64,000 bases of DNA from an uncultured cyanobacterium. GTDB lineage: Bacteria > Cyanobacteriota > Cyanobacteriia > CAKZMO01. Where the stretch lies: contig CAVRCJ010000017.1 of the NCBI GenBank assembly GCA_963719515.1, positions 88,455 to 152,454 on the forward strand, read 5' to 3'. Positions 22,711-32,142 of this stretch are shown piece by piece. The position numbers and the translations under genes were made by a program. Within the stretch, counting starts at the first letter, position 1. Each line of letters begins with the position of its first letter. The notes beneath the pieces are model-generated. The model saw only the letters and a list, made by a program, of their open reading frames with translations, made no database searches and had not been told where the DNA came from.

Positions 22711-24348
22711 CTACTGCATTTGCTGGACCGCAGCCCTAAGCCCTCTACTAGCTAGCTGCTGCTGCATTTGATTAGCGTTCTCTACCCGCTGGTACGCCCC
22801 CGCCTGCATCACCGCTCTGCCATTAACGCGGGTAATAAATGCCCCCGGCGCGATCGCCTGCACGACTGCCTGAGCCTGGGCGCTATCGGCCTCAACAACA
22901 ACTCGATAGCGAGGGGTAAGCCGAGCGCCCCCTACAGAGGCAGCAGAAATCCTGGAGAGTCCCCCCACATAGCCGACTGGAACCTGAGCTGTGGGGACGG
23001 CCAGCAGATCGTCGCTCGGCTGGCGGCGGGGCGGTGGGCTATTGGGGCGCTGGGGCAGGGCGGCTTGTAGTGGATTTGGCTGCGGTGCCGGGGAAGAAAG
23101 CGCAGCAGCCGGGCTAGGAGATTGGGACAGCCCAGCGATCGGATTGAAGCCGGGACGAGCGGGCGGGTTTTGAGCGCGGGTCGGAGCGATAGGCGGGAGC
23201 GCCACCGGAAGGGCGATCGCCTCACCAGGCGTCTCGTCGCGGAGGGCTTCGTTGGAGGTTGTCGCGGCGGCTGGTACTAGGGTCTGAGGATGCTGGCCTG
23301 CCGATGTTGCGATCGCGCTAGGCACCGCCGCAACCACCCCGCTAAAATCGACGCGACCAGAGGTGCGGGCCACCGGCGACCCCGTTAAAAACTCGTTGCC
23401 TGCCGCCGCGATGATCTGATTTGAGGCCTGGGCATTGATGTCATACCGACCATTGCCGCTAAACTGATTGCCCCCCGGCTGGCCTTGAAGGCCTAAGTCG
23501 GGCTGCGCCTGCGCGATAGTCACAACCCCGTCCTCACGGTTACTCAAAATACGGTTTCCCCGCAGCTGCGGACGGGCCTGGGCTTGAATGAGCACTCCAG
23601 AGCGGTTGCCGCGAATATGGTTCTCCCGCAGCTGCGGAGCCGCCTGCTCACTAATGGTCAAGCCGTAGCCCGTCTCTTCAATGCGGTTGGTTTGAATGAT
23701 TGGGGCTGCCGTGCCGCCTATTGAAAGGCCGCTACCTCGATTTTGATAAAAGCGATTGTGGCGCACCGTGGGACGACTATCGCCCCCGATGGCAACGCCG
23801 TGCTGGCTGCCCCAAAACAGACAGCTGGTCACGGTAGGGGCACCCTGCTCAATCCACAGGCCATGACCCCGGTCGTTCGACAAGGTCAGACCGCTGATTA
23901 CCGCGCTTCCGGAGGCGATCGCCGCTGCATTTTGCCGTCCGGCTGTGGCACTCATAAAAGTGCCGCCACCCTGAATGATGACGCCGTCGCCGTAGTCGTC
24001 GGGGCTACCCTGCAGCGTTACCCCATCTAGGATCTGGAGCGGAAACTGCTCGCCGCCGTCGCGGCTGTAGCGTCCCGGAGCGAGCACAATTGTGGTGCCG
24101 GGGGAGGCTAGTAGCAGCGCCTGGGTGATAGTCTGCAGCGGCGCGTCTTCGGCTCCGGTGGCGCGATCGCTCCCCTGAAGCGGATGGACAAACAGTCGGG
24201 TGATCTCAGTAGGACTGATTTCGGCCTGGGCAATCGCGTAGGGTTTGGACATTGCGGGTGCAGACGCCGATGCGAGGGTCAAAGCTCCACCTTGAAGCAC
24301 AACTGCCGCAAACGTAAGGCCGAACCGTAGCCAAGACACTCGTCCCAT
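22711..24348 (-). CDS. Secreted DUF1565/right-handed beta-helix protein with a C-terminal SPOR-like domain
   Basis: Signal peptide, PLQTITQAL...PGRYS...EQFPL, parallel beta-helix repeats, C-terminal MQAGAY..ENA. Confidence 0.75.
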   Translation of the reverse strand: MGRVSWLRFGLTFAAVVLQGGALTLASASAPAMSKPYAIAQAEISPTEITRLFVHPLQGSDRATGAEDAPLQTITQALLLASPGTTIVLAPGRYSRDGGEQFPLQILDGVTLQGSPDDYGDGVIIQGGGTFMSATAGRQNAAAIASGSAVISGLTLSNDRGHGLWIEQGAPTVTSCLFWGSQHGVAIGGDSRPTVRHNRFYQNRGSGLSIGGTAAPIIQTNRIEETGYGLTISEQAAPQLRENHIRGNRSGVLIQAQARPQLRGNRILSNREDGVVTIAQAQPDLGLQGQPGGNQFSGNGRYDINAQASNQIIAAAGNEFLTGSPVARTSGRVDFSGVVAAVPSAIATSAGQHPQTLVPAAATTSNEALRDETPGEAIALPVALPPIAPTRAQNPPARPGFNPIAGLSQSPSPAAALSSPAPQPNPLQAALPQRPNSPPPRRQPSDDLLAVPTAQVPVGYVGGLSRISAASVGGARLTPRYRVVVEADSAQAQAVVQAIAPGAFITRVNGRAVMQAGAYQRVENANQMQQQLASRGLRAAVQQMQ

Positions 24349-24523
24349 AGAATCCCCGCATCAAAGCGATTTTCGGGGATTGTCTCACACCTTTTCCGTG
24401 AGGGGAACGAATTATTCTGAAGATTAGTTGCGTTATGTGAACTAGGCCGTGTTGACGTTGGTGCTGGAGAGGGTCACGCCTCCCTGACACAATGCATCCA
24501 AACCGGTGAACTGACCGTATAAG

Positions 24524-24551
24524 TTGTGAGCGCTGATATCAGCGCTCACAA
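24524..24551. repeat. Perfect 28-bp palindrome
   Basis: TTGTGAGCGCTGATATCAGCGCTCACAA equals its own reverse complement. Confidence 0.95.
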
Positions 24552-24592
24552 AGTAACATTCACCATTCCATTGAAGAAGTTCCTATGCGCAG

Positions 24593-24808
24593 CCTCACAT
24601 TCATCAAGGTGACCCTGTTGAGAATGGCCCTTTTCAGTACGCTCTTGACGTCACTCTAGATGACACAGGTCGGGGTGGCAGTGCAGCCGGAGAATACAGT
24701 CTCACGCCTGAGCAGATTCAGGCGTGAGCTGACGGACGCCTTTATGTAGACATCCATACTACCCAGAACCGTGGTGGTGAGTTGCGGGCGATCTTGATGC
24801 CCTACTAG
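24593..24808 (+). pseudogene. CHRD-domain gene remnant (5' truncated, internal stop)
   Basis: Manual translation PHIHQGDPVENGPFQYAL...LTPEQIQA*ADGRLYVDIHTTQNRGGELRAILMPY* has the CHRD HIH / LYVxxHT / GELR motifs; TGA at 24725-24727. Confidence 0.8.
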
Positions 24809-24907
24809 GCCCTGTTAGCGGTTTTATGCGATCTACTGATGCCGTTAATAGAGATAAGGGCGGCGGGTAGCGGGGAATCCTGATGCTGTTGAGCTAGGAC
24901 GCTTGCT

Positions 24908-25168
24908 ATGACTCATGCTACTGCAGATGTCGCACAGACCCCGAGACGCTGGTATCACCGCAACTGGCTGATTGTGGCGCTGTTGGTGGGGCTACCAATT
25001 GTTGGTGTACCGCTGACCTGGACAGCCCGCTGGTCTCTCTGGGGCAGGGCGACGGGAACCGTGCTAGGAAGCCTGTGGCTGCTGACGCTGATCCAGGTGA
25101 CGGCGGCGGAGACGGCAAGGCTGAGCTGTCCTGGAATGGGATGCGATGTGGTAGCGCTGAGTGAGTAG
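24908..25168 (+). CDS. Small hypothetical membrane protein
   Basis: 86-aa ORF, RWYHRNWLIVALLV..P..G with two hydrophobic segments. Confidence 0.55.
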   Translation: MTHATADVAQTPRRWYHRNWLIVALLVGLPIVGVPLTWTARWSLWGRATGTVLGSLWLLTLIQVTAAETARLSCPGMGCDVVALSE

Positions 25169-25555
25169 CCGCAGATTGTGGCCCTGCATTGGCGTGGAAG
25201 GAGATGACGAACTGCTGCAGTGAGCGGCCCCTTTGAGGCGACGTTAAGCCTGGCCTCTGCTGGCGGAAACGGTGCCTTGAATGAGCAGGGCAACCCTGAA
25301 ACCCAATACAGCACGGGATAGGCCCAGAGCAGTTGCCCCAATCATCAAGGCGCTGATGTAGTCACTGGTGATTTGGAGGTGGGTTAGTCCATAGAGTAGC
25401 GGCAATAGGGCGGTGGAAAGCAGGACCGACAGCGCCTCGAACCTGATTATCTTTTTGCAGTTATTCTGCACGAAAGTACTGCCGTGGCGTGACCTAAACC
25501 GACAGGCGATCGCCACTGGCAGTTTACCGATGTCCCTTAAACTTTAGCTACTAGA

Positions 25556-25939
25556 CAGGAAGCCCCGCGCTCTACCCGTCAGGGTGTGCGTCGGGATGAG
25601 AGTCGCGCTAGCCGAAGTGCGCCCGCAAAATGATGCACAGCCGATAGTGCGCTCAGCGCTGAGGCTAGCAGTTGGTATGATAGAGATAGCAAGGTGATAC
25701 ACCCCGCAAAGAGCGTGACGGGCCCGTAGGCGAAAGCTGCAAGTCACCCGTTCCTCAGTTTGCAAATGTATCTGCGACACATAGTGCGTATCCTCCCTCG
25801 CGGAGATGAAAATTCAAAACTCTGCCGTGGGGCATCAGGCGGAGTATAAACCTATCTCAGGATATGTCTCGGCAATAGCTGGGAGTCACTGAGGAAGCCC
25901 GCGCTGTACAGCTTGCTGTCAGCGTCGGGAGGATGTCAC
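25556..25939 (+). mobile_element. Non-autonomous IS200/IS605-like element (no tnpA/tnpB ORF)
   Basis: Two directly oriented imperfect hairpins GGAAGCCC(C)GCGCT...GCGTCGGGA at 25558-25596 and 25893-25930; the second is followed by GGATGTCAC, resembling IS605-family right ends. Confidence 0.65.
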
Positions 25940-25968
25940 TAGTCAGCCTATGGCCTGAAGGGCTCAGT

Positions 25969-26190
25969 TCATCTTTCGCCGGTCGAGGTAGCTGACTGGC
26001 CTAGCTCAGGCAGCAGGGTGAGGCCTTCTGGCGGGATGGCCAGGAGCTTGGTCCAGAGCAGCTGCTCTGAGTAGTTGATGATGTGGAGCATATGGATGGT
26101 TTCGCGGACGCCTGCGGGGGAGCCGATGACGATGTGGCAGACGCGCTCTGAACCGGGATTGGGGTTGGGGATATCGGTACGAGAATTCAG
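25969..26190 (-). pseudogene. Small cyanobacterial hypothetical protein lacking a canonical start (frame not in the ORF track)
   Basis: Manual translation ERVCHIVIGSPAGVRETIHMLHIINYSEQLLWTKLLAIPPEG resembles a recurrent H(I/L)xIGSP..V..TIH.LH family I recall from filamentous cyanobacteria. Confidence 0.4.
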
Positions 26191-26327
26191 GATATTTGGG
26201 GACGGATGGCAAGAGGGGCTTTATGCAAAGGCTGCTTTGTGACTTCTTTCCGTTGGCTGGGAAGCCTAGCGATTGCAGACCTACAAACAAACCTGGGTCA
26301 GCGATTGAACTATTGATATGATTAGAT

Positions 26328-26606
26328 ATGACATTTGAGTGGGACCCCTCAAAGGCATCCACCAACATAGAGAAGCATGGCATCAGCTTTAAAGAGGCTA
26401 AAACCGTATTTGCCAATCCCCTAGCTGCTATCTTCGATGACGAAGCGTATTCTGAAGGCGAGTTTCGAGAGATTATCATTGGACATTCTCGCCAAAATCG
26501 CTTACTTCTAGTTGTTTTCGTGGAGCGATCGCAAAGTATCCGCATCATTAGTGCCCGCCCGGCCACCCGTAAGGAGCGTAATGAATATGAGCGAAATGCC
26601 TTCTGA
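26328..26606 (+). CDS. BrnT family ribonuclease toxin
   Basis: FEWDPSKASTNIEKHGISFKEAKTVF, LLLVVFVER, IRIISARPATRKERNEY. Confidence 0.92.
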   Translation: MTFEWDPSKASTNIEKHGISFKEAKTVFANPLAAIFDDEAYSEGEFREIIIGHSRQNRLLLVVFVERSQSIRIISARPATRKERNEYERNAF

Positions 26607-26820
26607 CAATTCCCAATATTCCGAAGACGACATGCTAGACGAGTACAATTTCGATTATAAAAAGGCAAAGCCCAATCGATTTGCTGCTCATAGCGACGCG
26701 GAGAGGTTGACCGTTGTAGTTTTGGATGAAGATGTCTCTCAGGTTTTTACAACCTCTGAGGCAGTCAACAAAGTACTGCGATCGCTCATTGAAGCTATGC
26801 CGCAGGGCGCCCGCAAATAA
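26587..26820 (+). CDS. Putative antitoxin (BrnA-like) of the BrnT toxin
   Basis: Overlaps the toxin 3' end; DDMLDEYNFDYKKAKPNRFA, VVLDEDVSQVF..SEAVNKVLRSLI. Confidence 0.8.
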   Translation: MSEMPSDNSQYSEDDMLDEYNFDYKKAKPNRFAAHSDAERLTVVVLDEDVSQVFTTSEAVNKVLRSLIEAMPQGARK

Positions 26821-26843
26821 GCTATCGGCGGGCTAGGAAGCGG

Positions 26844-29800
26844 TTACGGCCACTGTTTGCAGACTTCTCGCATTGCTGCGAGGCACTTGGGCAAGGTTTC
26901 CTCGCCGCCTAAATGGGTCAGCGCCGGATGGAGTTTTGGAACGTTGTCGATCAGGCTGTCACGCTTTTGGTAAGCGAACGCTTCTAGAATGTCGAGGAAT
27001 TGCTCAAAGCTGGGGACGAATTCATTGGGTCGATGGAGCAGACCTTGCCACACGTTGGCGCAGTAGTATTTATTTTTGAACGCGCTGATTGAATCTAAGA
27101 CCTCAGGGAGCAGGCTAACGGGCAAATGCTTAGCCAGTTCTCCTAATGCCTTAGACCGTTCCGATTCATCTTGAAGTGCTTGGGCGATCTCCAGCGCCTC
27201 TGGCAATAGCTCGGGGGGTAGCTGCTTTGCCAACTCCCTCAGCGCCCTGGAGCGGTAGTACTCATATTGAATCTGCCGAGTGACCTCCAGCGCCTCAGGC
27301 AACAGCTCGGGTGGTAGGTGCTTTGCCAACTCGCTCAGCGCCCTGGAGCGGTCGGACTCATCTTGAATCTGCCGAGTGACCTCCAGCGCCTCAGGCAACA
27401 GCTCGGGTAGTTGCTTTGCCAACGTCACTCAGCGCACTGGAGCGGGAGAACTCATCTTGAATCTGCCGAGTGACCTCCAGCGCCTCAGGCAACAGCTCGG
27501 GTAGTTGCTTTGCCAACTCCCTCAACGCCCAGGAGCGGTCGGACTCATCTTGAATCTGCCGAGCGGCCTCCAGCGCCTCAGGCAACAGCTCGGGTAGCTG
27601 CTTTGCCAACGCACTTAGCGCCCTGGAGCGGTCGGACTCATCTTGAATCTGCCGAGTGACCTCCAGCGCCTCAGGCAACAGCTCGGGTGGTAGGTGCTTT
27701 GCCAACTCGCTCAGCGCCCTGGAGCGGTTGGACTCATCTTGAATCTGCCGAGCAATGTCCAGCGCCTTAGGCAACAGCTGGGGGGTAGCTGCTTTGCCAA
27801 CTCACTCAGCGACAGGGCGGTCGGTCTCGATTGAATCTGCCGAGTGACCTCCAGCGCCTCAGGCAACAGCTCGGGTAGCTGCTTTGCCAACTCACTCAGC
27901 GCCCTGGAGCGGTCGGACTCATCTTGAATCTGCTGAGCAATGCCCAGCGCCTTTGGCAGAAATTCTGCAGGCAGCTTGTCCACCAATTCAGTCAGCGCAT
28001 AGGCTCTGTAAGAAAATCCAGAGGTACTACTGTCTATGATCTGCCAAAGCGGTCCTGAATCTGACTCACGCGCCTCTAGCACCTCCGGCCAAAGCTGTGG
28101 AAACCGCTCCGCCAGCTTGCTCAGCACAAACGACCGATAGGGCATATCCGTAATCCATCCCACCGTCTTCAGCACCTCCGGCAGCAGCCCCTCTGGGATG
28201 TAGGGCACCAGCACCGCCACACATTCCGCCCGCCGCCAGGGGTCCTGCATCTGCTGCGCGTAGGCCAGCCCCTGCGCCGGTTGCCAAATCCCCACCTTCA
28301 CCAGCGCCCCCACCAGCGCCGCAGGCACATTGCTCGCCAAGCTGTTGATCGAGGTGCGAATCAGCGCATAGCGAAACAGCCGCGCCAGCGCCGTGCTGTT
28401 GTCCTGGCGGGGGTCCTGGTCCTGCTCATACTCCTCTACCGCCAGCCGCCAGCCCCGCCCCACGTCGTTCACAAACCCCGCCGGTTTCCCCAGCGCGTCG
28501 CAGGCCTCATACCAGCCGTTGCGCCCCGCGTCACTGCTCGCCGCCAGCAGCTGGTACACCTCATCCGGTTGCCGGGCCTGCTCCATGTGCCAGGTCAGCT
28601 GAGCAAAAATGTAGCCGTCGTCCGGCAGCGTATGCCACTGCCCCCCCTGCGTCTTGGCCCGGTAGCGCGCCAGCAGCTGGCCGTGCGCCGCCGCCTTCGT
28701 CAGCCCCAGCCCCGATAGGTCTCCCGCCTGCTCCGGCTTGGGTGGGTCCGTCAGCAGCCGCTGCGCCAGGTCGTGCATTAGGTCGTGCAGCCGGTAGCTG
28801 CGCTTGTTGCCCTGCTTCGTCCCCGGCAGCAGCAGCGCCTTACCGCTAAACTGCCGCAGAATTGCCCCCGCCTGCCGCGCGGTCACCTGCCACAGCGTGG
28901 TCGCCATCTCCTGGGTCAGGGTCACATCCTCCGGCACCACCCCCAGCCAGGCAAAGTAGCGCAGTTGCTCTAGCGAGAGCTGCTTCAGGCTCAGGTTGAA
29001 GCAGGCCAGCAGGCTATACTTGCGCCGCTTGGCGTCGTCGGGGATGTCCTCTTTGCCATACAGGTCCAGCGTCTCCAGCCGCCCCCGCTCCGCGCCAAAG
29101 TCTTCTAGCAGCTCCTCCCAGGTCACCCCTTCTTCAATTTGCGTTGCCGCCAGCTCTAGGGCCAGGGGCAAGTGGCCCACCTGCCGGGCAAAGTCCAGGG
29201 CCTGCTGGGTTTCCGCTTCGCTCAGCGGCTCCGGCAGCTTTTGGGTAATCAGCTCTAGCGCCTGCTCCGGGCTCATCTCGTCCAGCGGGTAGCGATAGGC
29301 ATCCGCAACCATCACCTCTCGCGTCGTCACCAGCACGCAGCACTGCGACCCCCCAACCCGAAACGGCTCCAGATGTCCCGGCTTCCAGATGTCATCCACC
29401 ACCAGCAGCACCTTCTTGTCGTACAGCAAGGTGCGCAGATGGGCCGAGGCCGGTTCTACGGCGGTGGGTTTATAGTCGTGGTCCCCCAACGCCTGAATCC
29501 AGCCGCTCAGCAGCGGCAGCAGGTCTGGGTTTTGACCCAGCGTCGCCCACAAAACTCCGTCGGAGAAGCGGGCTTGAACTTCCTTGTCGTGGGCCAGCTT
29601 TGAGGCCAGCACCGATTTACCGATGCCCCCCAGCCCGTGGATAGCGCTGACTACCAGGGTGCCAAAAACTTTGGGGTCTTCTGAGAGCAGCCGCGCTTTG
29701 ACGGCCTGCTGGTGGCTGGGCCGTTCCACAAAGTGCTCTGGCAGCGGCGGCAGCTGCAGCGGGATGTCCCAGCGCTGGCGAGGCGGGGCGGCAGGGAGTG

Positions 29801-30536
29801 GTTCGGGTCTGACAGTACCGCCAAACGTTAGCAGTATTGGGGTTCCCTTGCTCTCGCAGAGGCTCCGCTGAGTTTGCCCTTTCATGGCCTGCTCTAGATG
29901 AGCAGTCAGAGAAGCAGTAGTCACCTCCCCGGTCTCAGTATTGTTTGGGTCAAGCCCATCCAATATCGCCTTAGTCAGTACGCCGTAGGGCGACATCAAA
30001 TCATTGTAGGATGCCTCAAAATCCCGGGATGAGGTGAGAAAGTGGCGAGCATGGCCCTTTCGACCTGCTGACGTCAGTCCATCAAAGTTGAGAAAACTGC
30101 CGCTGTTGCAGCAGTCCAGCCAAACAACCTGTTCCGGCACGTTGCTGCGCTCCAACACTCCGCGCAGCCACATAAAATCAACCCCCCAATCTTCATGTGG
30201 TTTAGCATCGCCGGAGGCAAGGTAGCCACACTTATTGCTAGTCCACCCATGGCCAGAGAAGTACAGCAGCGCCGTGGTTGGAGCTTGAGTCTCAGTGTCG
30301 GGCTCAAAGAGATGGGCGATCGCATCCATCAGTTGCTTTCGCTTGACGATGCGATCTGTCCCAACCTGGCCTGCTTTACCCGTGGGTACTTCAGGCAGCC
30401 GGGTCACATTAAAACCGCCGTAATTCTCAAGAATTTGAGCGATCGCCTCTGCATCTCTAGCTGACGACGGCAAATCATCTAGCCCACTGTTCTGGCGATA
30501 GCGGTTGATTCCGACAACTAAAGCATCCCGACCCAT
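26844..30536 (-). CDS. NLR/APAF1-like STAND protein: caspase (C14) + NB-ARC + helical domain + 31/32-aa repeats; split into three ORFs by frameshifts in the repeats
   Basis: ALVVGIN, YFSGHG and LDCCNSG (His/Cys dyad); GLGGIGKS Walker A; LLVVDDIW Walker B; VLVTTRE; GHLPLAL; LHDLMHD; LPDDGY..LTWH; ORFs 27711-30542, 27391-27774 and 26844-27428 share the same repeat. Confidence 0.88.
27100..27960 (-). repeat. Nine coding tandem repeats of 93/96 nt within the NLR-like gene
   Basis: Unit EALEVTRQIQDESDRSRALSELAK(Q/H)LP(P)ELLP; equivalent positions at 27281, 27377, 27471, 27564, 27657, 27753, 27845 and 27938. Confidence 0.95.
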
Positions 30537-30689
30537 GGACAAACTTTCGAGCGGCAGGTAATACAGTTTAGTATCGCCCTTAATTTAAGCGATCGCCAGA
30601 TTTCCCCGTCGCTGTTTCCTCAGCGGCCCCTATCTAAGCCGATGCCACAAAGTCCACATCCACCAGCGTCACCCGCTCTTTCGAAATGC

Positions 30690-30730
30690 GGAAACCCCGG
30701 CTCTCTAGACTATAGAGGCCGGGGGATAAC
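30690..30730. repeat. GC-rich hairpin resembling a solitary IS200/IS605 end or REP
   Basis: GGAAACCCCGGCTCTCTAGACTATAGAGGCCGGGGG. Confidence 0.45.
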
Positions 30731-30894
30731 TGGACTGTGGTGCCGGGAGAGGTCAGCGTCATCGCCCGGTTAATGGTTTTCAAGGGCGCGTTCTTGCTAC
30801 CGTTAGCGCGATCGCTGCTCTGGGTGGAGTGAGCAAACAGCAGGCCACGATTCGGCAGATTAGCTACGGCTAAAGGTAAGCCACAGCAATAGGT

Positions 30895-32142
30895 TTAAAT
30901 TCCCAAGTCGCTAAAGAAGTCGATCGCCTCTTTAAGCGACGCGATGAAGACGTCCACCTCCTCTCGGGTGTTGTAGAAGTAGAGGCTGGCGCGGGCGGTG
31001 GATTGGGCCTTCAGCAGGCGGTGCAGGGGCTGGGTGCAGTGGTGCCCGGCGCGAATGGCTACACCCTGCTGGTCGAGAATGGTGGACAGGTCGTGGGGGT
31101 GGACTGACCCGGTGGTAAAGGACGCCAGCGCTGCTCGCTCTTGGGTCTTGGGCCCGTAGACCCGCACCTCTGGCAGCGCGGTAACCTGCGCCATGAGGTA
31201 GGTGGCCAGCTCCTGCTCGTAGGCGTGGATGGTGTCCATGCCAATGTCGCTCAGGTAGTCCACGGCGGCACCGAGGGCGATCGCCTCGGCAATGGCGGGG
31301 GTACCGGCCTCAAAGCGGTGGGGAATGTCGGCGTAGGTGGCGTGGTCTAAGAACACGTCGGCAATCATCTCGCCGCCGCCCAGGAAGGGGGGCATGGCTC
31401 GCAGCACATCCTGCTTACCGTACAAAAAGCCAATGCCGCTGGGGGCGCACATCTTGTGGCCTGAGGCCACTAGCCAGTCGCAGCCCATGGCCTGCACGTC
31501 CACCGACATGTGGGGGACGCTCTGGCAGGCGTCGATCAGCACCTTGGCGCCGCGCTCGTGGGCTAGGTCGATAATCTCCCGCACTGGGTTGACGCAGCCC
31601 AAGGTGTTGGAAACGTGGGACACCGCTACGATCTTGGTCTTGTCTGTGAGCAGGGTGCGGTAGTGGTCTAGGTCAAAGGTTTCTTCTTCCGTCAGCTGCA
31701 CAAACTTCAGCGCCACGCCCTGACGCTGGGCCAGCAGCTGCCAAGGGATCAAGTTGCTGTGGTGCTCCATCACCGACAGAATCACTTCGTCCCCCGGCTC
31801 CAGCAGCGACCCCTGGGCATAGGCCACCAGATTAATCGCCTCGCTGGCGTTGCGGGTGTAGATGATTTCTTCGCGGTGGGCAGCGTTGACGAAGCGGGCC
31901 ACCTTATCGCGAGCGCCCTCATAGGCATCGGTGGCGCGGGCGCTGAGGGTGTGGACGCCACGATGCACGTTGGCGTTGTCCTGGCGGTAGTAGTTCTCTA
32001 TGGCCTCCAGTACGGCCAAAGGCTTCTGAGAGGTGGCCGCGTTGTCCAGATAAACCAGCGGCTTGCCGTTGATCTGCTGGTTCAGAATGGGGAAGTCGGG
32101 GCGGAACTTAGCGGCCAGCGTTCTTTCTTGGGTAGCAGTCAT
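30895..32142 (-). CDS. sufS: Cysteine desulfurase SufS
   Basis: [25 protein letters not shown] lysine, RAGHHC. Confidence 0.97.

Follow-up and report, generated by a model that had tools for sequence, protein, structure and literature searches.

The subject of this analysis is a putative immune receptor gene of an uncultured cyanobacterium. It is located in a 64,000-nt stretch of DNA (the window; contig CAVRCJ010000017.1, positions 88,455 to 152,454), which is part of contig C17 of a 5.28-Mb assembly comprising 21 contigs and 100% complete by markers. The gene lies on the minus strand with its ATG at 30536 and the end of its stop codon at 26844. The span of 3693 nt corresponds to 1230 codons plus the stop, and the first open reading frame (ORF) comprises 941 amino acids (aa). 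The product joins a caspase, an NB-ARC ATPase and a helical repeat array. On balance we regard it as probably an immune receptor of a family whose caspase is likely to cut a small Pepco/Trypco1 protein and thereby open a pore. Residue conservation refers to an alignment of the window protein with 47 caspase-bearing homologues (48 sequences). The following features were assigned to the gene:

29823..30536, minus strand: caspase-like (Peptidase C14) domain, aa 1-238 (Pfam PF00656; caspase fold in the model)
30249..30251 and 30108..30110, minus strand: catalytic residues H96 and C143 of the caspase domain, invariant in 48/48
within the caspase domain, minus strand: acidic residues D28 (in at least 90%) and D141 (invariant in 48/48)
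29739..29816, minus strand: Pro-rich flexible linker, aa 241-266 (predicted local distance difference test, pLDDT, <50 at 241-254)
28746..29738, minus strand: NB-ARC module (NBD, HD1, winged helix), aa 267-597 (Pfam PF00931, invariant columns, Foldseek)
29613..29636, 29391..29408, 29157..29174 and 28770..28790, minus strand: Walker A, Walker B, HLPLAL and LHD/MHD motifs of the NB-ARC module
27987..28685, minus strand: APAF1_C-like helical domain (aa 618-664) followed by a helical adaptor to aa 850 (PF17908 sub-threshold; helical in the model)
27180..27932, minus strand: 8 near-identical HEAT-like repeats in tandem, each of 31/32 aa, predicted to be the sensor (Tandem Repeats Finder, TRF; unit split; model)
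27748..27839, minus strand: repeat unit 2, 92 nt, with the first frameshift (about four scattered single-base gaps)
27372..27465, minus strand: repeat unit 6, 94 nt, with the second frameshift (extra base near 27424)
26844..27179, minus strand: last degenerate repeats and conserved C-terminal cap ending CKQWP (alignment of 29 C-termini)

An earlier inspection of the letters only (here referred to as the sequence-only reading) had proposed a caspase with an intact His/Cys dyad (SGHG, DCC) joined to a complete NB-ARC module. Profile searches bore out both domains. Peptidase_C14 (PF00656) matched aa 5-218 with E 2.3e-10 (41 bits vs a cut-off of 21.4) and NB-ARC (PF00931) matched aa 276-467 with E 2.6e-21 (76.5 bits vs 23.5). 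SGHG (H96), DCC (D141, C143), Walker A (301-308), Walker B (D381/D382), L456-P457-L458 and H588 were invariant in 48/48 sequences, and the sensor TTR, GxP-type and MHD-type motifs were invariant or nearly so. The MHD motif is present as claimed, but at a shifted position: the literal MHD of the window protein at 587-589 directly follows the family consensus MHD at 583-585, and we take L583-H584-D585 to be the true position by homology to Apaf-1 and plant NLRs.

The proposed APAF1-like helical segment found some support in structural and profile matches to Apaf-1. The APAF1_C profile (PF17908), the third one suggested for checking, remained under its cut-off on the window protein itself (E 1e-3, 19.5 bits vs 22.8); it clears the cut-off in several homologues. 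The monomer model reached a mean pLDDT of 84. Foldseek against the PDB placed Apaf-1 (3sfz) first with E 3.4e-16, and the alignment to the Apaf-1 structure 1z6t covered 572 columns with a root mean square deviation (rmsd) of 11. In a PDB profile search AfsR ranked first (E 7e-30), followed by Apaf-1 (E 1e-19). The NCBIfam AfsR profile gave E 4.5e-31 but just 108 of 1430 bits, and no NCBIfam family attained its cut-off. On the window caspase the profile of EACC1-type caspases (NF047832) scored 81.7 bits vs a cut-off of 140, and the caspase domain alone had no sequence relative in the PDB at useful E-values.

Homologues without a caspase align to the window protein only from about aa 250-260 onwards. 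On the same NB-ARC core, relatives carry caspase, trypsin, TIR, PNP, CHAT, EAD4 or AAA_35 N-termini. The Pro-rich linker is, judged from these alignments, likely the junction where N-terminal effectors are exchanged. The GC content at third codon positions is 0.56 in the caspase part vs 0.81-0.86 in the ATPase part, which fits a mosaic gene. These effector swaps, together with the location in an accessory island, agree with the effector-NOD-sensor layout proposed from the sequence. The closest homologues belong to filamentous Leptolyngbya-, Nodosilinea- and Leptothoe-type strains, and full-length homologues of 1200-1700 aa are open frames. Effector-less members with a small helical gene directly up- or downstream were found as well (L074, L090, L123 and L248:4545-4961); L248 is the copy on the gamma plasmid of Nostoc PCC 7120 and has no caspase.

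The neighbourhood of the family was analyzed in the best 80 genome loci, of which 30 carry a caspase detectable with the window caspase. A Pepco/Trypco1 gene (PF19493, NF041216) is located directly upstream in 24 of these 30 loci, in 23 of them head-to-head. The other 50 loci held a Pepco of this clade once, as a remnant in L077. L071 carried a different Trypco1 with a separate trypsin-like gene, Trypco2 preceded the trypsin-fused receptors L099 and L112, and the same receptor core was joined to an EACC1-type caspase with a small upstream gene in L089 and to a PNP domain in L098. In the reverse direction, a caspase lay no more than 900 bp away in 57 of 80 metagenome loci of the Pepco clade, in 54 of them on the opposite strand; among the 23 loci without one, 8 have <110 bp of upstream DNA. 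The caspases beside metagenome Pepcos were mostly fused to an nSTAND1-like domain, and a single-query test found no trypsin beside the 80 loci. Pepco distances follow those of the caspase (r 0.89, partial 0.86) more closely than those of the NB-ARC (r 0.50, partial 0.19; n=22), and the NB-ARC tree intermixes the two caspase clades described below. The split gene L126 was left out of the distance and NB-ARC analyses, and L087, L059 and L068 stayed ungrouped in the trees. In the PDB, Pepco had no sequence relative at useful E-values. A complex prediction with two copies of the sister caspase and its Pepco scored 0.00, the fold of the partner being uncertain.

Pepco tails after the ECSF-type end (last strand) comprise 2-13 aa in 100/103 scored sequences, which argues for a cut site other than the C-terminal tail. 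The variable acidic linker of the Pepcos contains K/R in 106/106 and a following G in 102/106 aligned homologues, and K/R-G occurred in 71/80 linkers of the metagenome set vs 23.6 +/- 3.7 after shuffling; since a query carrying K-G was used to collect the Pepco sets, these counts are upper bounds. The caspase tree separates two clades (100/100 support), one of which pairs with K-G and the other with M-G (7/8; one R-G). Among 107 further loci, including two repeats of earlier ones, the neighbours of clade A carried K/R-G in 56/63 and those of clade B M/Y-G in 4/4 cases; trypsin-neighbouring Pepcos matched the pattern in 2/7, both off the motif position. The sequences show a matched change of caspase clade and Pepco linker motif. 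We predict that K/R-G in the Pepco linker is a new caspase cut site, with M/Y-G in its place beside the second clade. Non-animal C14 proteases favour Arg/Lys at P1 (PMC5756287, PMC8283722), and by analogy this preference would fit K/R at P1 of the Pepco linker.

The proposed mechanism is as follows. A foreign, probably phage protein would bind to the repeat array and trigger an ATP-dependent oligomerisation of the NB-ARC receptor, which would switch on the caspase by proximity. In the relatives the active caspase would then cut the small Pepco/Trypco1 protein after the K/R of the K/R-G motif (K42 of the sister Pepco) and remove about 42 N-terminal residues. The cut Pepco would form a pore in the membrane, and the infected cell would die. 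The window copy, which is without a cognate Pepco, would either have a different substrate or do nothing. In this scheme we infer what triggers the receptor, that it oligomerises, that Pepco is cleaved and that the cut falls after K/R.

The C-terminal helical repeats expected by the sequence-only reading were recovered as a tandem array. In the 3' part TRF found about 8 tandem units of 93/96 nt (score 1117, 87% matches), and the C-terminal model (pLDDT 93.8) is an all-helical solenoid. Its best structural matches were HEAT proteins and alphaRep scaffolds with Z 11-12.3, among them 4xl5 (Z 12.0, rmsd 2.9, 153 aligned), values below the telling level for helical repeats. Pfam HEAT did not match the window copy, and an Atlas search with the C-terminus yielded only unnamed or automatically named cyanobacterial clusters of low recognition value. 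Pfam matches on repeat fragments (Nterm_IS4, DncV_C, Rv2632c) were rejected as artefacts of summed repeats.

Repeat units were compared in 9 arrays with 120 units, leaving out the two frameshifted units, one degenerate unit of L050 and 6/14 homologue arrays with fewer or more degenerate units. Identity was 79-91% within a gene vs 50-86% between genes, and the repeats of a gene were more alike than to the array of any other gene. The ratio of non-synonymous to synonymous differences (pN/pS), calculated from uncorrected pairwise counts against the pooled synonymous rate and ignoring recombination, was 1.2-1.9 at unit positions 3, 5, 6, 9 and 12 and ≤0.71 at all other positions. The repeats are homogenised within each gene in a concerted manner, yet diversifying at five positions. 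The unit spacing 5-9-12-16 equals that of the alphaRep binding positions 19-23-26-30 (PMC3754942). For fungal NLRs with high internal conservation this regime has been described and was proposed for bacterial ones as well (10.1101/2020.01.06.895854).

Both net frameshifts of the window gene fall inside the array, two in 750 bp. The extra base at 27424 was missing from one independent contig (run X4, depth 3). As a control we used 149 ordinary orthologues of two genomes of the same genus, 56.6 k aa with the target included, and these contained 2 frameshift-like and 2 stop-bearing genes; breaks are thus concentrated in the repeat array, as would be expected under mis-polishing and under real slippage alike. 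Strain variants in the non-repeat coding part were 18 synonymous vs 6 non-synonymous among the 24 listed (of 40 shown and 120 found). Furthermore, contigs differed by 3 nt at 27591 and 27872, the repeat number varies widely among homologues, and the genes L069 and L126 are also split, outside the array. We consider it likely that the two frameshifts are sequencing or polishing errors in the array.

The gene is part of an accessory island, for which the following features were assigned:

24430..30890, no strand: accessory island of about 6.5 kb between a DUF1565 gene and sufS (flank spacing in G002, G003)
26328..26820, plus strand: BrnT toxin gene with overlapping putative antitoxin gene, convergent with the receptor (PF04365, E 4.6e-29)
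30537..30894, no strand: upstream gap where relatives have the head-to-head Pepco/Trypco1 gene; decayed 5' part of a DUF1565 gene, no Pepco

About 90 bp separate the DUF1565 gene from sufS in G002 and G003, two genomes of the same genus; the receptor, the BrnT pair and a miniature inverted-repeat transposable element hence form a 6.5-kb insertion. Window positions 30746-30832 match 24091-24177 in the 5' part of the DUF1565 gene with 74% DNA identity over 89 nt. With this decayed duplicate at the sufS end, related copies flank the island on both sides. The first 200 bp upstream of the receptor are confirmed by a contig of run X1, which covers 30206-30740 with one difference. BrnT/BrnA was rejected as a partner and regarded as island cargo because it stands beside the receptor in 1/80 related loci (L124). 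Profile searches of the putative antitoxin ORF beside BrnT matched nothing, an Rfam scan of 24300-31000 gave no matches, and a promoter and terminator scan gave chance-level output.

A 397-bp non-coding element at 25543-25939, presumably IS200/IS605-like, is present in 53 near-full-length copies in the genome. Elsewhere its two ends are also found at a distance of about 1.4-1.5 kb from each other, which points to larger parent elements, and run X4 showed an opposite-strand joint 25493/25939 at this element. The region 26019-26150 has many 70-90% matches across the genome and resembles a piece of some multi-copy gene family. In sediment runs, pieces over the ATPase/helical part (28350-29680) differed by 4-5% from the window and those over the caspase part and flanks (29760-30740) by 0-0.5%, a pattern that could come from a recombined core or from other members of the family. 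The receptor core was found in 6/17 genomes of the family (E ≤ 1e-100; several of these genomes are incomplete) and in 10 plasmid records.

The statement that no substrate gene is adjacent proved correct for the window copy, where no Pepco lies in 30537-30894 or nearby, and no small gene, such as an EACC1 gene, lies upstream. That the target is unknown applies to this copy only; for the relatives Pepco/Trypco1 is the likely target. The window caspase is sister (99/91) to the Pepco-linked caspase of L047, a locus in a genome of the same genus, and the two agree in their active-site loops. Five tested rows without Pepco were rejected as a single clade by the approximately unbiased test (p-AU 0.00014), which makes repeated loss of Pepco the simplest reading. 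In the window copy the neighbouring Pepco gene has most likely been lost. Each of the 5 genomes in which relatives lack Pepco contains a related Pepco at another site, in three cases with no protease next to it, so that an action in trans is plausible for those relatives. Stand-alone Pepcos of K-G type with no protease nearby were found among housekeeping genes (L132, L135, L178, L193, L196, L201, L209, L217 and L219) and often adjoin one same small gene; they are candidates for a shared executioner. At the syntenic sites checked in the genome of the window no recognisable Pepco ORF was found.

Elsewhere in this genome, the sole Trypco1 belongs to a Trypco1-trypsin-MoxR-vWA operon (L128, G000:C1:231471-236333). 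It was rejected as cognate partner, being trypsin-linked, without a K-G site and with a poor score on the clade profile. Trypco2 was not found in the assembly. Three further caspases of the family carry nSTAND1-like, NB-ARC-TPR and WD40 modules (L129, G000:C3:563849-566598; L130; L131), and L129, the paralogue on C3, is broken twice. Two caspase-FGE-like genes (L246, L247) each have a small EACC1-like gene upstream, one divergent and one co-directional. The caspase of L246 scores above the EACC1-type cut-off, and the small gene of this locus has no profile match.

Several points weigh against the proposed cleavage of Pepco by the receptor caspase. A cognate Pepco was found neither adjacent or nearby nor genome-wide in the assembly, and none of the four caspases of the family in this genome is beside a Pepco, so that family caspases are retained without it. 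Pepco is also absent in five evaluable caspase loci of other genomes (L048, L055, L057, L058, L059; one more locus was too short). The related loci in the Pepco counts are not independent, physical linkage of Pepco and caspase can give a shared history without cleavage, 9/80 metagenome linkers lack K/R-G, and the motif counts are inflated by the query as stated above. No S1-pocket residue that separates the caspase clades (K vs M) was identified, D28 and D141 being present in both. Published cleavage of Pepco is C-terminal and by a serine protease (10.1101/2025.11.14.688446). The PADLOC 2023 search advised by the sequence-only reading came back with the generic 'caspase' profile and no other system profile. 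Regarding the integrity of the gene, none of the listed contig differences bears on the first frameshift, no contig crosses the whole array, and assembly-error support at 27424 comes from a single contig of depth 3.

Some of these points would suit a window copy that works as a stand-alone defence caspase, cutting host or phage proteins directly with Pepco being optional. Besides the four family caspases without a cognate Pepco, the long intact ORFs of Pepco-less relatives (L055 1385 aa, L057 1709 aa), the more than single origin of the Pepco-less state and the non-synonymous divergence (dN) of the caspase to a common third sequence (0.31 vs 0.29 for the sister) speak for this; moreover, a caspase without partner protects E. 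coli against phages (10.1101/2025.11.14.688446). However, the active-site loops match those of the Pepco-linked clade, and Pepco elsewhere in 5/5 genomes of Pepco-less relatives is consistent with use in trans, and we hold the stand-alone role to be somewhat unlikely. It is less probable still, and in our view unlikely, that the window copy is a decaying pseudogene in which loss of Pepco was followed by real frameshifts through repeat slippage. Two frameshifts in 750 bp are many compared with the control orthologues, the partner gene is absent and the C3 paralogue is broken as well. Nevertheless, all catalytic motifs are intact, synonymous variants prevail, the extra base is missing from one contig, and about four single-base gaps scattered within 60 bp would resemble an unpolished read rather than one mutation.

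If real, the frameshifts could also be a reversible switch, slippage turning the receptor off or altering its specificity in part of the population. The variable repeat number, the 3-nt contig differences and the split genes L069 and L126 are in line with such a switch. Most full-length homologues are in frame, though, the gaps are scattered without a shared slippery site, the two split genes are broken outside the array and the 3-nt differences may stem from other repeat units that were aligned to the wrong one, so that we consider a switch very improbable. A non-immune STAND protein, signalling in the manner of AfsR/MalT or acting in developmental cell death with repeats that bind a host ligand, is only slightly less improbable. 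The top profile matches to AfsR and the lack of defence-system profile matches would accord with it, but the window protein has no DNA-binding domain, and the patchy presence, the island and plasmid locations, the defence-type effector swaps and the diversifying repeat positions all disagree. An immune receptor of a family that probably acts through Pepco stays our preferred explanation.

Parts of this picture have been described. In Streptomyces, Pepco is a pre-formed barrel which becomes toxic once the Avs4-fused trypsin removes a 2-kDa tail; the same source mentions Pepco in cyanobacteria and beside cysteine proteases, for which the available text gives no cut site (10.1101/2025.11.14.688446). 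In SsPepco-SsAvs4 as in the relatives studied here, a small Pepco gene lies immediately upstream of a STAND receptor that starts with a protease domain, and the receptor core of our family also occurs with trypsin and Trypco2. The Streptomyces system, however, consists of trypsin and Avs4 and is cut after Ile97, whereas here a caspase, NB-ARC with HEAT-like repeats and a head-to-head layout are combined with a short-tailed Trypco1 with a predicted internal K/R-G cut, the partner being absent in the window copy. Caspase-fused bacterial orthologues of Apaf-1 are known, and the closest Apaf-1 homologues are found in cyanobacteria (PMC13581612). Like the window protein, these orthologues have an Apaf-1-like ATPase whose N-terminal CARD is replaced by a caspase, but their sensors are WD40 propellers instead of an all-helical repeat solenoid; the accessible part of that source names no substrate. 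The 'one-gene apoptosome' of the sequence-only reading therefore holds as a fusion, which was already contained in that source, and less so as a one-gene system, since related systems normally comprise two genes (24/30 with Pepco/Trypco1).

Caspase-NB-ARC fusions had been noted in Chloroflexus in 2012 (PMC3501461), Trypco1/2 were defined beside trypsins (PMC7159879) and Trypco has been treated as an adapter (PMC10907252). The EACC1-caspase two-gene systems (PMC7159879; KrAvs12-EACC1 in 10.1101/2025.11.14.688446) likewise consist of a caspase fused to a variable sensor and, upstream of it, a small partner that forms pores. They differ in the caspase, as the NF047832 score indicates, and in the partner, which is Trypco1 in our relatives; L089 with its EACC1-type caspase is the exception. 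Fungal HET-D/E-type NLRs also have units that are 80-90% identical within a gene and contain variable positions, and the same regime was suggested for bacterial WD/TPR NLRs (10.1101/2020.01.06.895854), whereas here the units are HEAT-like with 31/32 aa and the effector is a caspase. Structurally, the NB-ARC and helical domains match the animal Apaf-1/caspase-9 apoptosome best, and this apoptosome provides the presumed logic of caspase activation by proximity. In contrast to it, the protease is fused in cis, CARD and WD40 are missing, and the predicted specificity is basic rather than Asp.

Taken together, the fusion of a caspase to an Apaf-1-like ATPase in cyanobacteria and Pepco as a protease-activated pore are already known. 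Our literature searches, with most subscription papers outside reach, found no account of this receptor family with caspase and Trypco1 genes arranged head-to-head, and none of the internal K/R-G site or the diversifying array described here. The link between caspase homologues of cyanobacteria and cell death is an old one, but a review from 2017 counts only one of them as biochemically characterised (PMC5756287). The window copy, orphaned and broken in the assembly, is the weaker part of the case, and intact relatives are the better test objects. The caspase-Trypco1 pairing supplies testable candidates for the substrate, the cut site and the mode of killing, and the K-G and M-G clades offer a built-in specificity swap.

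As a broader and more tentative proposal, filamentous cyanobacteria may possess an inflammasome-like pathway in which caspase-STAND sensors of either build, nSTAND1 or NB-ARC with HEAT-like arrays that diversify themselves, all act through a Trypco1 pore. This pore would be unlocked by an internal K/R-G cut that removes an N-terminal inhibitory segment, a second way of Pepco activation; a second caspase clade would have co-evolved with an M/Y-G site, and stand-alone Pepcos would serve several sensors in trans. If true, Trypco1 would be a natural substrate of cyanobacterial orthocaspases. The repeat array represents a bacterial case of the fungal-type concerted and diversifying sensor and bears on how the specificity of such receptors is rewritten.

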